64,000 nucleotides of DNA, from the NCBI RefSeq assembly GCF_003334765.1, contig NZ_QOWT01000002.1; one strand, 5' to 3'. The stretch comes from Escherichia coli (GTDB lineage: Bacteria; Pseudomonadota; Gammaproteobacteria; Enterobacterales; Enterobacteriaceae). The stretch's first letter is position 1. Every line of letters starts with the position of its first letter. A program made the translations under genes and the position numbers. Of this stretch, positions 3,481 through 34,247 are shown in pieces. The notes beneath the pieces are model-generated. The model was not told the DNA's origin and ran no database searches. It saw only the letters and a program-made list of their open reading frames with translations.

Positions 3481-4200
3481 TTACAGGCCAATCGCCTCTT
3501 TTAAGCTTTTCAGATAACGGCGGCTGACCGGCACGGTTAAGCCATTACGCAAAATCAACTCGGCCTGGCCGTTATCTTCCAGACGAATCTCCTGTAAATG
3601 CGCGAGGTTAACCAGATACTGACGATGGCAGCGCAGTAGTGGTGTACGACTTTCCAGGGTACGTAATGTCAATTCGGTAAAGCCCTCTTTCCCTTCGTGG
3701 CTGGTAACGTAGACACCGCTCATCCGACTGCTGACAAATGCCACATCTTTCATTTGCAGCAAATAAATCCGACTATGCCCAGTACAAGGGATAAATTTCA
3801 GCGCCTGTTGATTTTCTGGTAACAGCGAAACATCCTGCTTGCTGCGTTCCTGCCGCAAACGCGCCAGCGTTTTCTCCAGTCGCGCTTCATCAATTGGCTT
3901 CAGCAGATAATCAAAGGCGTGTTCTTCAAAGGCTTTAATGGCGTATTCGTCAAACGCGGTGAGAAAAACAATATACGGACGATGTTCCGGGTCGAGCATC
4001 CCCACCATTTCCAGACCACTGATGCGCGGCATCTGGATATCGAGAAACAGCACATCCGGGCGCAGTTTATGCACCGCGCCGATCCCTTCCACGGCGTTTG
4101 AACACTCACCAACGATTTCAATATCGCTCTGCTCCTGCAAAAATACGCGCAGGTTCTCCCGTGCTAACGGTTCATCATCGACAATTAAGACTTTAATCAT
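3481..4200 (-). CDS. btsR: LytTR-family response regulator BtsR (YehT)
   Basis: Receiver domain ([10 protein letters not shown]) plus LytTR C-terminus; start overlaps btsS stop. Confidence 0.9.
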
Positions 4201-25203: not shown

Positions 25204-25219
25204 TGTGAATCTTTTCACA
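25204..25219 (+). promoter_or_regulatory. Perfect CRP consensus palindrome upstream of preT
   Basis: TGTGA-N6-TCACA about 95 nt upstream of preT start. Confidence 0.6.
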
Positions 25220-29048: not shown

Positions 29049-30569
29049 TTAAAGGTGCAAAGACGCAAGACGCAGAATTTCGTTTTGCGTTGTTGTTTTT
29101 GTATCGACAATTCCGGAAACGAGACCATTGCTCATGACCAGAATACGGTCTGTTATCCCTAACAACTCAGGCATTTCAGAGGAGATAATAATAATCCCCT
29201 TGCCTTTCTTCGCCAGTTCGGCAATTAACTGATAAATTTCAAACTTCGCCCCGACATCAATACCGCGCGTCGGTTCATCGAGCATTAATATTTCTGGTTG
29301 CGTTAGTAGCCAGCGACCAATAATCACCTTTTGCTGATTACCACCGGAGAGCGAACCAATTTGCGTCCGATGACCCGGCGTTTTTACCCGCATCGAATCA
29401 ATCACCCACTGGGTATCGCTTTTCATCCGCGAGTTATCCAGTAAACCAACTTTATTTTTGTAGTTGCGAATATTGGAAATTAACGAGTTAAAACCAATAT
29501 CCAGATAGGCATAAATTCCCGTTGAGCGGCGCTCCTCAGTTACCAGTGCAAATCCATGGTTTATGGCTTCGTTGGCATTATGGTTATTGATCTGTTTGCC
29601 GTGCAACGTTATGGTGCCAGCCGATTTCTCGCGAATACCAAATAACGTCTCAACAATATCGGTACGTTTCGCCCCCACCAGACCGGCAATACCGAGGATC
29701 TCCCCTTTATGCAGATCAAACGAGACATCGCGAATCGACGGCTGGCGCAGTGACGTCAGGTTACGTACCTCGAGGATGACTTCGCCCGGTTTGTTTTCTT
29801 TGTCAGGGAAACGCTGGTTAAGAGAACGCCCAACCATCATGGCGATGATCTTGTCCATCGTCAGTCCTGCCAGCGGTTCGGTGGCGATCCACTGACCGTC
29901 GCGCAATACGGTAACTTCATCACATAACTGGAAGATTTCTTCCATTTTATGCGAGATATAAACAATACCGCAGCCGCGCTCTTTTAATTTACGAATAATA
30001 GTGAACAGATGATTGACCTCTTTTTCGGTTAACGAAGAAGTCGGTTCATCCATAATCACAATTTTCGCGTTATAGGAAAACGCTTTGGCGATTTCGATCA
30101 TCTGCATTTGCGAAACGGATAATGTGCCGACGCGCGCACGCGGATCGATATCAATATCCAGTTCGTCAAAAATCGCTTTGGTTTCGCGGTACATTTTGTC
30201 CTGATCGACAAACATGCCTTTGGTGGGATATCGCCCCAGCCACATGTTATCCATCACCGAACGTTGTAATACCAGGTTTAACTCCTGGTGTACCATCGAA
30301 ATACCATTTTCCAGGGCTTCTTTTGCAGAATGGAAATCGATCTCTTTACCCTGGAATAAAATGGTGCCGGAGTCTTTTTGATAAATACCAAACAGGCATT
30401 TTAATAATGTCGATTTTCCTGCACCGTTTTCCCCCATTAATGCATGGATAGAATGTGGCCGGACTTTTAAATTAACGTTATCAAGTGCCTTAACACCAGG
30501 AAAGGACTTGTTGATACCGCTCATTTCCAACAAGTATTCCCCGGAGGACGGAGTCGTTGAGCTGACCAT
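29049..30569 (-). CDS. mglA: Galactose/methyl-galactoside ABC transporter ATP-binding protein MglA
   Basis: 506 aa with duplicated ABC cassettes. Confidence 0.95.
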
Positions 30570-30629
30570 ATAATTTTACCTTGTTGGCCATACAATAAGG
30601 GCGCAGTAATAGACTGCGCCCAATCAGTC

Positions 30630-31628
30630 TTATTTCTTGCTGAATTCAGCCAGGTTGTCTTTATCTACGCCAACATAAGGTACGCGGACCACTTTGTTGT
30701 CGATTTTCCAGTTGGTGCCATCAGCCGCACCTTTACCATCGGCCAGGTTTTTCGCCAGATCAAAGGTCGCTTTCGCCTGGTTGTTAGCATCGTTCAGTAC
30801 GGTGCCCGCCAGTGCACCGGATTTCACCAGCGCCAGCGCTTCTGGCAGCGCATCGACGCCAAACACCGGAATGCTGGACTTGTTGTGTGCTTTCAGCGCT
30901 TCAACCGCGCCCATTGCCATCGCATCGTTGTTGGCGATAACCACTTCGATTTTGTTGGCGTTCGGGCCAGACAGCCAGGCGTCCATCTTATCTTTCGCCT
31001 GAGCGGTGTCCCACATTGCGGTATCTAACTGTAACTGTTCAGTTTTGATGCCTTTATCGTTCAATTCTTTAATCACGTAAGTGGTACGTGCTTCTGCATC
31101 CGGATGGCCCGGTTCACCTTTCAGCAGTACGAACTGAATCTGACCGTCTTTGTTCAGATCCCAACCCTGATTCGCCGCCCAGTGTTTAGCAATCAAATCG
31201 CCTTGAATAATGCCGGACTCTTTGGAGTCAGTGCCAACGTAGTAGGCTTTGTCGTAGCTATCCAGCGCCTTACGAGACGGTTCTTTGTTGAAGAAAACCA
31301 CCGGCACGTTTTGCCCACGCGCTTTCTCAATCACCGTACCCGCAGCTGCCGGGTCAACCAGGTTGATTGCCAGTGCCTTCACCCCTTTCGCCAGCAATAC
31401 GTCGATCTGATCGTTCTGCTTGGACTGGTCATTCTGAGAATCATTCATCAGCAGCTGAACATCTGGCGCGGCTTTCGCATCTTGCTCAATAGCCTTGCGC
31501 ACTACAGACATAAAGTTATCGTCGTACTTATAGATTGTTACACCAATGCGAGTATCAGCAGCGTGTGCAGCGGCACCGAATAACATGCTGGCCATCACAG
31601 CAGACAGGGTTAACACCTTCTTATTCAT
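30630..31628 (-). CDS. mglB: Periplasmic D-galactose/D-glucose-binding protein MglB
   Basis: 332 aa with signal peptide; recognised sequence. Confidence 0.95.
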
Positions 31629-31879
31629 GGTATCTCCGGTTTTTCTTATGCAGGGTAGTGCTTGAGATAAATGCTCGGCGGGGCAGTAGAGTTAATGAAG
31701 TGTTACTGAACGCCGAAGCTCACTTTTTAAAATTCGTTCTTCCATGCCCGGTAACGCTCCAGAAAACGGCTTTAATTGTTGTTATGACGCTGTTACCTCG
31801 GCAAAAGTGATTATTCACTGTTACATACGGGTTACAACGTTAAAACGGTGCAATCATAGCTATCACATTGTTAAGATAC

Positions 31880-31895
31880 TGTGAAATCACTCACA
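31880..31895 (-). promoter_or_regulatory. CRP site in mgl control region
   Basis: Perfect TGTGA-N6-TCACA between galS and mglB. Confidence 0.7.
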
Positions 31896-31899
31896 GATT

Positions 31900-31914
31900 G
31901 AAAGCGGTTACATC
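31900..31914 (-). promoter_or_regulatory. GalR/GalS-type operator half-match
   Basis: GCGGTTACAT matches the gal internal operator; overlaps galS stop codon. Confidence 0.5.
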
Positions 31915-32948
31915 GCCTGATTTGTTGAGTTAGTGATCGCCGCCGCATTCTGGCGTGTTGCGACAGAATGGCGACGCACTAACGTCGGCATAAAACAGTG
32001 GCTGGCACGAGGATCAATATTGCCTGCTGCCCCCTGCAAGGCCAGTTCGGTGGCTAATTTCGCCATTGAAGCAATGGGATAACGCACGGTCGTTAATTGC
32101 GGGTCGGTGTAACGGGCGATGGGAATATCATCGAAACCGATGATTGAGAGATGTAACGGAATCGCAATGCCATTATCTTTTAATGCTGTCAGTGCGCCAG
32201 CGGCCATATTGTCGTTATAAGCAAATACAGCGGTAAGTTGTAGATTGCGCCCCAGCAGTTCAACCATCGCCGCCTCACCGCCCGGCATGTCCGGCGTACC
32301 AGCGCCAATCCAGCTTTCCGGCGGAATAATATCCTGCTCTTTCAACGCACTCATCCAGCCTGCTTTACGCATGGCGTCATCTTCAATGCCGTGGCTGGAA
32401 GAAAGATAACCAATACGTTGATGACCGTTATTCAGCAACATGCGCGTCGCCATTCGGGCACCGCTGAGATTATCCAGGCAAACGCAACGATGGGCGTACC
32501 CCGGCACAACGCGGTTGATTAACACCATACCGGGAATGTTATCCATAAATTGCGCCAGTTCATCGTCACTCAATGCTTTTGAGTGAACAATCAACGCATT
32601 ACAACGCTGGCGAATTAACACCTCAATGGCGTGACGCTCTTTTTCCGCTTCATGATAGCTATTGCCGATTAGCACGTATTTCTGATGCTGCTGAGCGACC
32701 AGATCCACCGCTTTTACCAGCGCGCCGAAAAACGCATCAGAAACGTCCATCACCACCACGCCAATGGTGTCGCTAACCTGAGTTGCCAGCGCCTGGGCAT
32801 TGGCGTTTGGCCGATAATCCAGCTCACTCACGGCTTTCATTACTGCTTCACGCGTGTCGGCACTGACCAGCGTGCTGTTATTGAGCACCCGGGAAACCGT
32901 TGCCACAGAGACGCCAGCCTGACGCGCTACATCACGAATGGTGATCAT
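31908..32948 (-). CDS. galS: LacI-family galactose isorepressor GalS
   Basis: N-terminal LacI HTH ([23 protein letters not shown]). Confidence 0.9.
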
Positions 32949-33089
32949 ATTCACTACCTGTTATGAGATTGCAGTAAATGACTGCTTGCTGGCGGCTATT
33001 TTGTCAGCACTGAATACAGGACTTCGTGAATCGAGTCACAGCAATGGAAACGGTTACAGCCGTTTTGTTAACGAATGTGATCCAGATCG

Positions 33090-34247
33090 TTATCTTGATG
33101 TTTTAGATATTGCCGGTCCGGCAGCACGCAAAGTTAACTGACGCCAGAGCCATTCCACCGGCCCCTGGCGGAAGTAACGCAGCCAGATAACAGAGAAGAG
33201 GATATTCGCCAGCCATACCGGAATAACAAACGCCAGCAGCTCCAGGCGGTCAAAATGCATAAACAAACCGAGGTGGTAAAAAAGCGTGGTACAAATCAGC
33301 GTTTGCAATAGATAGTTGGTCAGCGCCATCCGTCCGACGCAGGCGATCGCAAGCACCAGCTTAAAGCGGCTCAATTGCGGCCAGAAGCCATAAAACAGCG
33401 ACGCATAGCCAATCGCCTGAAACGGCGCACTCAGTTCCCGCGGCATTTGAAGTAAGAAGGCACACCAGCGATACGCCCAGTCCAGCTGCCATTGCAGGGC
33501 GATGGCAGGAAGGTTAATGGTCACCCCAATCGCCACCAGCACAAAACCAGTACGACGATAGTGACGTAAGCTGAACTGCCCTTTCAGCCAGCCGCTGCGC
33601 ATCAGCGCCGCACCAATGAGCATCATCCCTGCCAGTTGCCAGCCATACTGTGCGCCCAGTGCCAGTAAACTGTTGCCAACACCATCGGCACGATAACTGA
33701 TCGCTTCAACGCCGCCGTGAAGCTTCCAGTATTTTTCATACAAAATAGCCGATGCATCCGGCGTCCAGGCGCGGCTGGTCTGGCTGTCGGAAATCAGCCC
33801 CAATAACAGCAAAACGCCAAGCCCCACCAGATAAAGCATGACGCCTGTATTAAACAGGCTTTTTACCGATGGCGCATCGCGCACCAGCCGCCAGCAGATT
33901 AAGCCCACCAGCCCGTAAGCCAGCAAAATATCGCCGTCCCAGAACAATAAACCGTGAATAAAGCCCAACAAGACTAACAGCGTTAACCGCGACTGGATCC
34001 AGCGTCTGCCACGGGGCAGCAACATTTGCAGGCCCGCACCAAACAGTAGCGCAAAAAGCGTGAGGAATTTCACCTGGCCGATGAGATCAAGAAATGCCCA
34101 AGTCCATGCATCCCGCGGCGTAATAGCACCGTACCAGGCGGGATTGAGATAAGCCGCCTTTGGTAGCCCAAAGGCGCTGATGTTTAATAGCAGGATCCCC
34201 AGAATGGCGACGCCGCGAACAAAATCGAGCGTGACGTTGCGCTCCAT
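33090..34247 (-). CDS. yeiB: DUF418 inner membrane protein YeiB
   Basis: 385 aa polytopic membrane ORF. Confidence 0.8.
   Translation of the reverse strand: MERNVTLDFVRGVAILGILLLNISAFGLPKAAYLNPAWYGAITPRDAWTWAFLDLIGQVKFLTLFALLFGAGLQMLLPRGRRWIQSRLTLLVLLGFIHGLLFWDGDILLAYGLVGLICWRLVRDAPSVKSLFNTGVMLYLVGLGVLLLLGLISDSQTSRAWTPDASAILYEKYWKLHGGVEAISYRADGVGNSLLALGAQYGWQLAGMMLIGAALMRSGWLKGQFSLRHYRRTGFVLVAIGVTINLPAIALQWQLDWAYRWCAFLLQMPRELSAPFQAIGYASLFYGFWPQLSRFKLVLAIACVGRMALTNYLLQTLICTTLFYHLGLFMHFDRLELLAFVIPVWLANILFSVIWLRYFRQGPVEWLWRQLTLRAAGPAISKTSR

Follow-up and report, generated by a model that had tools for sequence, protein, structure and literature searches.

The mglBAC promoter region at the 3' end of Escherichia coli galS: architecture, leader RNA and comparative history of an operator–stop codon overlap

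The sequence motifs at the 3' end of galS are, very probably, the promoter-control region of the mglBAC operon for the galactose/glucose ABC transporter. The element is the already curated promoter mglBp (RegulonDB/EcoCyc); its recognition from the DNA letters by a first-pass annotation was a correct rediscovery of a known site, and an ordinary one. The analysis adds the comparative history of the overlap between the operator and the galS stop codon, a parallel with lacI and its operator O3 that is put forward as a hypothesis, and an apparently conserved hairpin in the mglB leader. The motif positions, their geometry and conservation, the history of the stop codon and the absence of a terminator were established here, in the window (the whole stretch of 64,000 nt that was analysed) and in related loci. 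Binding, activation, repression, the curated positions and control by Spot 42 are taken from the literature.

Architecture of the mglB promoter

The galS, mglB and mglA genes are all located on the minus strand of the window. In a genome comparison, the 801 bases around the galS-mglB junction match E. coli K-12 MG1655 with 100% identity, and every one of the 5,426 complete E. coli genomes contains them. Three other, divergent E. coli genomes carry the same annotated end of the galS CDS. The genes and the elements of the promoter are as follows.

31908..32948, minus strand: galS (mglD) CDS, gal isorepressor (ORF list and RefSeq annotation of the identical MG1655 stretch)
31913..31911, minus strand: last sense codon of galS, ATG (sequence)
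31910..31908, minus strand: galS stop codon, TAA (sequence)
31898..31913, minus strand: mgl operator mglO, GalS/GalR binding site, centre 31905.5 (-59.5) (motif, ChIP-chip, mutations, conservation, RegulonDB)
31877..31898, no strand assigned: cAMP-CRP site, 22 bp, centre 31887.5 (-41.5) (motif, conservation, Reg-Seq footprint, selected mutation)
31853..31858, minus strand: -10 hexamer TATGAT of mglBp (sequence; 26 aligned species show a nearly invariant (C/T)TATGAT)
31846, minus strand: inferred mglB transcription start, a G (NC_000913.3 position 2240566)
30630..31628, minus strand: mglB CDS, first gene of mglBAC (ORF list and RefSeq annotation)
29049..30569, minus strand: mglA CDS (ORF list and RefSeq annotation)

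The minus-strand sequence at the end of galS is ...AAT CAG GCG ATG TAA CCGCTTTCAA TC TGTGAGTGATTTCACA GTATC. The operator sequence, ATGTAACCGCTTTCAA, is a complete 16-bp dyad in which the outermost base on either side (positions 1 and 16) is the sole departure from the consensus GTGKAANCGNTTNCAC, and not the half-match that the first-pass annotation had described. It also matches the gal-operator pattern GTGNAANC.GNTTNCAC with a central CG, located at 31905/31906. Positions 1-3 of the operator are the last codon of galS, and positions 4-6 are its stop codon. The core of the CRP site, TGTGAaatcacTCACA at 31880..31895, is a perfect TGTGA-N6-TCACA and begins 12 nt downstream of the stop codon. 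The overlap with galS involves the operator only, and the earlier description of both sites as lying at or over the stop codon is correct for the operator and incorrect for the CRP core. The 22-bp CRP site and the operator have one base pair in common, and their centres are 18 bp apart. Measured to the mglB ATG (31628), the CRP centre is 259.5 nt away and the operator centre 277.5 nt, and the first estimate of about 250 nt is correct.

The RegulonDB positions for mglBp, as quoted in the supplement of the Reg-Seq study (2025-26), are -41.5 for CRP and -59.5 for GalR/GalS, and a comparison with the measured centres gives an exact fit. As 31846 is the only position that yields both values from these centres, we infer that it is the +1 of mglB, a back-calculation from curated positions quoted second-hand. 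This G is 7 nt downstream of the TATGAT hexamer, and the conserved leader hairpin described below begins exactly at it. The possibility that the start site would place the motifs at positions inconsistent with promoter function does not materialize, because the inferred +1 puts CRP at -41.5, the canonical class II position. The -35 region (CAGTAT, 31881..31876) is poor, as expected since CRP occupies -41.5. By the usual definition, a promoter with CRP centred at -41.5 belongs to class II. With a perfect CRP site near this position and a recognizable -10 hexamer, mglBp is predicted to be a class II CRP-dependent sigma-70 promoter.

Published experiments bear on both sites. Without regulators, mglBAC is not transcribed in vitro. 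The Reg-Seq study recovered an activator footprint at the CRP site at -41.5, a position that its supplement labels 'class I'; a GalR/GalS footprint at -59.5 was not recovered there, and the annotation of that site was rated as weak-confidence. A GalR ChIP-chip peak is located at mglO (TTGAAAGCGGTTACA at 2240625; Qian et al. 2016), and both the sequence and the coordinate of mglO are identical to those of this published operator. In glucose-limited chemostats the same operator mutation recurs (2,238,647, C to A) and a second one is found at 2,238,648. These map to 31905 and 31906 in the window, the central CG of the dyad, and mutations of this central C or G derepress mglBAC, raise its expression and sweep through the population. 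Another mutation selected under glucose limitation (2,238,630 in the coordinates of the source paper) maps to 31888, inside the CRP site. As the chemostat papers report the operator, its position right at the end of galS was in print before. GalS rather than GalR is the main regulator of mgl according to the literature. The naming of the site is inconsistent in the literature, and one table of Qian et al. lists the operator at 31898..31913 as 'OE (galS)', not mgl.

Taken together, the following mechanism can be proposed. cAMP-CRP at -41.5 would activate, in the class II manner, a sigma-70 promoter in which the -10 hexamer is good and a usable -35 hexamer is missing. GalS, and more weakly GalR, would bind the single operator at -59.5, which abuts the CRP site. 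In the absence of galactose, the bound repressor would presumably block activation, and galactose would lead to its release. Transcription from 31846 would then produce a 218-nt leader whose post-transcriptional elements are a hairpin at the 5' end and an Hfq/Spot 42 site just ahead of the ribosome-binding site. With galS immediately upstream on the same strand, and with neither room nor a terminator between the genes, the promoter would come to touch galS.

Could the motifs be chance resemblances without function, with the real mglB promoter close to the gene? Motif statistics for the operator would allow this reading, as the gal-operator consensus at up to two mismatches gives four matches in the 64-kb window against 2.7 expected and is not rarer than chance. 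A sigma-70-like match inside the leader (TTGTAA-16-AATAAT, 9 of 12 positions, 31837..31810 on the minus strand, within the 5' hairpin) could be taken as such a promoter, and one match in the region against 1.5 expected is the chance level. The perfect CRP core is, on the other hand, far above chance, with two observed in the window against 0.04 expected from shuffled sequences. Moreover, neither the sites nor their spacing vary among 80 species, unlike the flanks, and the GalR ChIP peak, the adaptive mutations at exact bases and the Reg-Seq CRP footprint coincide with them. The chance reading is effectively refuted. Since the operator motif alone is not above chance, the reality of mglO rests on its conservation in 80 species, on the ChIP and mutation data, and on clustering: three operator sites at up to two mismatches (31898, 32891 and 33044) all lie at galS, and Qian et al. 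2016 give the same three sequences as operators of the gal regulon. The published sites in and upstream of galS are the following.

32891..32906: operator within the galS coding region, GTGGCAACGGTTTCCC
33025..33040: CRP-like site of the galS promoter, CGTGAATCGAGTCACA
33044..33059: operator of the galS promoter, CTGTAACCGTTTCCAT

A weak, palindromic operator-like sequence, GTGCACCGGATTTCAC (three mismatches), is present inside mglB at 30812..30827. Qian et al. refer to the site inside mglB as 'O (mglB)' and include it among the sites connected in 3C assays.

The second perfect CRP core of the window is TGTGAATCTTTTCACA at 25204..25219. We take it to lie in or near the cdd promoter region of the MG1655 map.

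History of the abutment and of the stop-codon overlap

The galS loci of species representatives from 80 Enterobacteriaceae were compared, covering Escherichia, Citrobacter, Salmonella, Enterobacter, Klebsiella, Raoultella, Kosakonia, Kluyvera and other genera, with GalS proteins that are 81-98% identical. The operator, in the form ATGTAACCG[C/T]TT[T/C]CAA, is present in 80 of 80 loci at a constant 18 bp from the CRP centre, and the CRP core is perfect in all 80 as well. The 10-15 nt immediately upstream of the operator vary freely (80 loci and the 26-species alignment). The distance between the CRP centre and the mglB ATG is 237-260 nt in all loci with mglB captured, except one. The close apposition of galS and the mgl control region is thus ancient, and the 80 species share it.

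There is one striking difference among the loci, which concerns the galS stop codon. In 75 of them GalS ends with ...ITN* or ...ITN(L/S/F)*, and the stop codon begins 11-15 nt upstream of the operator; in most Enterobacteriaceae it ends 8-12 nt before the operator. Reading of galS through to the ATG-TAA of the operator is found only in the window, with its K-12 sequence, and in four of the fetched loci, which are two E. coli, Escherichia sp. MOD1-EC7003 and the unrelated gut isolate MGYG-HGUT-00110. The galS end of E. whittamii is ACT AAC TGA GCA AAT CAG AGG ATG TAA, and its counterpart in E. coli is ACT AAC TCA ACA AAT CAG GCG ATG TAA. The comparison shows that a TGA-to-TCA change removed the ancestral galS stop in the E. 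coli lineage and added the six residues STNQAM to GalS (31911..31928 of the window, minus strand; also in loci L004 and L005). MGYG-HGUT-00110 shows an independent stop loss, and its galS likewise ends at the operator TAA. The galS reading frame of most genera includes this TAA (offsets of 12 or 15 nt), which therefore acts as a backup stop.

The stop-codon overlap, judged from these alignments, is a recent, lineage-specific by-product. As it is absent outside the E. coli-type loci and one further lineage, the overlap itself is no old, selected adaptation. Its origin by recent stop loss also cautions against reading function into overlaps between operators and stop codons.

The mglB leader

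The long mglB leader that had been suggested from the distance between the motifs and the gene is borne out by the inferred start site. The features of the leader are as follows.

31629..31846, minus strand: mglB 5' untranslated leader, 218 nt (inferred start to mglB ATG)
31781..31846, minus strand: 5'-terminal stem-loop, nt +1 to +66 (minimum-free-energy fold)
31650..31657, minus strand: invariant block UACCCUGC, -29..-22 from the mglB ATG (alignment and computed complementarity)
31634..31637, minus strand: mglB Shine-Dalgarno sequence GGAG (sequence; ACCGGAG is invariant in 26 species)

The length agrees with the published description of an mglBAC 5' UTR of 'about 250 bp' in E. coli and Yersinia (Csiszovszki et al. 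2011), and leaders of 196-219 nt are found in the 25 related species that were measured.

In E. coli, one long hairpin takes up leader nt 1-66 and starts from the inferred +1. The initial 70-72 nt were folded species by species in a set of 76 distinct orthologous leaders, giving a mean z-score of -2.28, with 61% of the leaders below -2. The neighboring 70-nt windows of the leader have mean z-scores of -0.6, -0.8, -0.05, +0.3 and +0.9. Two loci of non-enterica Salmonella (L023 and L024) are without the hairpin (z about +0.4). In addition, a covariance model was built from six Escherichia leaders and the other leaders were aligned to it. In this model-fitted alignment 84.5% of the cells pair, compared to at most 50.6% when the partners are slid, 15 of the 24 pairs of the hairpin show compensatory changes on both sides, and the covariation score is 0.23 compared to 0.136 ± 0.007 in shuffles; the alignment is fitted to the structure, and 4 of its 57 rows are opposite-strand matches. 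The 5' hairpin thus appears to be structurally conserved across Enterobacteriaceae, with compensatory changes.

The MAFFT alignment of the leaders is out of register in the variable arms, and the per-species folds and the covariance-model alignment were used for this reason. RNAalifold on the MAFFT alignment gave a global fold of -1.3 kcal/mol with no covariation, and the z-score of the whole leader as a single sequence is -1.35. A pairing test of the hairpin on ungapped arms gave 11.7 of 19 pairs compared to 10.6 in shuffles, a marginal result because the bulges differ between genera. An Rfam covariance-model scan of 30400..33300 in the window, at E-values up to 1, found no match.

The hairpin coincides with a mapped RNA 3' end. 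Term-seq in LB located a 3' end at 2240498 on the minus strand with 92,182 reads; it scored 0.44 for Rho dependence ('No') and 1.47 for intrinsic termination, and was classed as neither (Adams et al. 2021). This position corresponds to 31778 of the window, or +69, just past the hairpin. At the coordinate of the inferred start site, nothing is listed in the Term-seq supplements. The hairpin may be a 5' stabilizing element, which could also halt 3'-to-5' trimming or mark a pause. A conserved 5' hairpin at a mapped RNA 3' end has no Rfam family here, and no discussion of it was met in the literature consulted.

Other parts of the leader were also considered. The small apical hairpin GUGAnUAAUCAC, taken alone, is weak and variable. 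An upstream ORF of 17 codons (ATGGAAGAA..., about 31744..31691) was rejected, as its ATG is ACG outside Escherichia and its frame is not kept. A second dip in folding energy is observed at nt 109-178 of the leader (about 31675..31738), with a mean z-score of -1.6 over 76 species. In E. coli the stem in this region is formed by GAGCUUCGGCG and CGCCGAGC, with a loop that contains the conserved CAGUAACAC, and it lies upstream of the block complementary to Spot 42. The Citrobacter amalonaticus locus (L017) carries an insertion of about 195 nt (3770..3965) in the loop of this second hairpin, and has 453 nt between the CRP centre and the ATG; the locus keeps its ribosome-binding site and Spot 42 block as well as the 5' hairpin. 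The insert (...GGGGTGAGG...GTCAACGCACCTGTAAGTTGAAGTATGACGAG) resembles an ERIC/IRU repeat.

The block UACCCUGC is located close to the Shine-Dalgarno sequence, and its ACCCT and CA are invariant in the 26-species leader alignment. Counting one G-U pair, its complementarity to GUAGGGUA of the Spot 42 sRNA is perfect; the Spot 42 sequence was confirmed in E. coli and by Rfam RF00021. In Salmonella, Spot 42 represses mglB by base pairing with a conserved site in the 5' UTR (Holmqvist et al. 2016). By its complementarity and conservation, UACCCUGC is probably the Spot 42 pairing site and would match the published Salmonella site.

The galS 3' end and comparison with known systems

There is no intrinsic terminator on the minus strand between the galS stop codon and mglB (31908 to 31628). 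The sole minus-strand candidate (31602..31586) is weak and lies inside mglB, and was rejected as a galS terminator. Every galS transcript therefore meets the operator, the CRP site and the mgl promoter. Two possible consequences of this arrangement have to be weighed.

The first is that transcription from the galS promoter enters mglBAC or interferes with the mgl promoter, so that the abutment would be more than compaction. This coupling would be consistent with the lack of a terminator-like site, with a sole mapped 3' end in the interval (+69) that scored as neither Rho-dependent nor intrinsic, and with an abutment that is kept in 80 species. Coverage in the 800 nt upstream of the +69 end, which are mostly galS, is however about 6-fold lower than downstream (31 compared to 192); in LB, most mglB RNA therefore comes from the mgl promoter. 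The distal part of the leader is rich in C and poor in G (C/G about 2), which is compatible with Rho loading on untranslated RNA, and the literature treats mglBAC and galS as separate transcripts. We regard such coupling as possible, though unlikely on the whole. Many YC dimers are present in this distal segment (31629..31727, minus strand), as is usual where Rho loads, and RNA that is read through from galS without being translated could be affected. The Term-seq Rho score is negative at +69, and literature searches turned up no data on the distal segment.

The second consequence would be a roadblock, in addition to promoter function, and it relates to the other alternative of the first-pass annotation, an effect of the operator on how the galS 3' end is formed. 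GalS or GalR bound to mglO may stop the polymerase that is finishing galS, in the manner of lac O3. As the E. coli stop codon is inside the operator, a blocked galS transcript would be without a stop codon. Ribosomes would run to the end of this mRNA, and tmRNA tagging would lead to degradation of GalS, a post-initiation layer of negative autoregulation that galactose could reverse. The layout is that of lac, where the lacI stop lies inside O3 and is followed by a CRP site and the regulated promoter, and LacI at O3 leads to truncation of the lacI mRNA and to tagging of LacI by SsrA (Abo 2000, cited through another paper). In a 2026 preprint, RNA polymerase is blocked in vitro by purified GalR when an operator is placed within an ORF, and a truncated, tmRNA-tagged protein is made; the block is reversed by galactose, and translation reaches within three codons of the site. 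The template in that study is artificial, its operator is other than mglO, and galS is unmentioned. The missing terminator, by which all galS transcripts encounter the operator, would also suit a roadblock.

Several observations argue in the other direction. An overlap of the O3 type between the operator and the stop codon of the repressor gene is found in E. coli and is absent in 75 of the 80 species loci. It is limited to the E. coli-type loci and one further lineage, and elsewhere the stop codon is 11-15 nt upstream of the operator. The GalR block is leaky in vitro (2026 preprint). O3 is stabilized by O1, whereas the mgl operator is single and is not known to loop with a partner at the promoter. 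The Term-seq supplements searched (Adams et al. 2021) contain no 3' end for galS, either internal to the gene or close to the operator, and a literature search gave no link of GalS with tmRNA in the sense of tagging. A roadblock at mglO is plausible as a mechanism but rather unlikely on this balance. The wider proposal drawn by analogy with lac O3, in which a roadblock at mglO with tmRNA-tagged GalS is combined with a 5' hairpin that marks a stable leader RNA or an attenuation point, is rather unlikely as well. If it were true, there would be a second autoregulatory loop that is reversible by galactose and differs in strength between E. coli and its relatives. In any case, galS/mglO is a natural second test case for the model of LacI/O3 roadblock and trans-translation.

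The preferred reading, a promoter-control region of mglBAC that touches the end of galS, can be compared with several known systems. The curated mglBp is the same element in the same genome, with the same sequence and with CRP at -41.5 and GalR/GalS at -59.5, and nothing differs. The likeness to the targets of Spot 42 and Hfq, in the CRP feed-forward loop, concerns the leader and not the CRP and operator DNA motifs; like the Salmonella mglB leader, the E. coli leader has a complementary block.

The galE P1 and galS promoters also have a gal operator about 1.5 helical turns upstream of a class II CRP site. At galE P1, OE is at -60.5 and CRP at -41.5 according to the literature, and the supplement of the Reg-Seq study describes mglBp as having the 'same architecture as galSp'. 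The spacing between operator and CRP site is 18 bp at mgl and 19 bp at galS. On the other hand, galE has a second, intragenic operator, OI, and DNA looping with HU, whereas no partner is established for mglBp.

The overall organization also resembles that of lacI, O3, the CRP site and lacZYA. In both systems a gene for a LacI-family repressor is located directly upstream of the operon that it represses and in the same orientation, the stop codon of the repressor gene is inside an operator, and a CRP site follows within about 20 bp, and then the promoter. A check of the lac sequence places the lacI stop TGA at bases 6-8 of O3, GGCAGTGAGCGCAACGCAATT, with the CRP site following. The leaders differ greatly in length, that of lacZ being short (38 nt) and that of mglB 218 nt. 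O3 is a weak auxiliary operator that loops to O1 at the start site, whereas mglO is the only promoter-proximal operator and lies upstream of CRP. In addition, CRP is at -61.5 in lac (class I), in comparison with -41.5 in mgl (class II).
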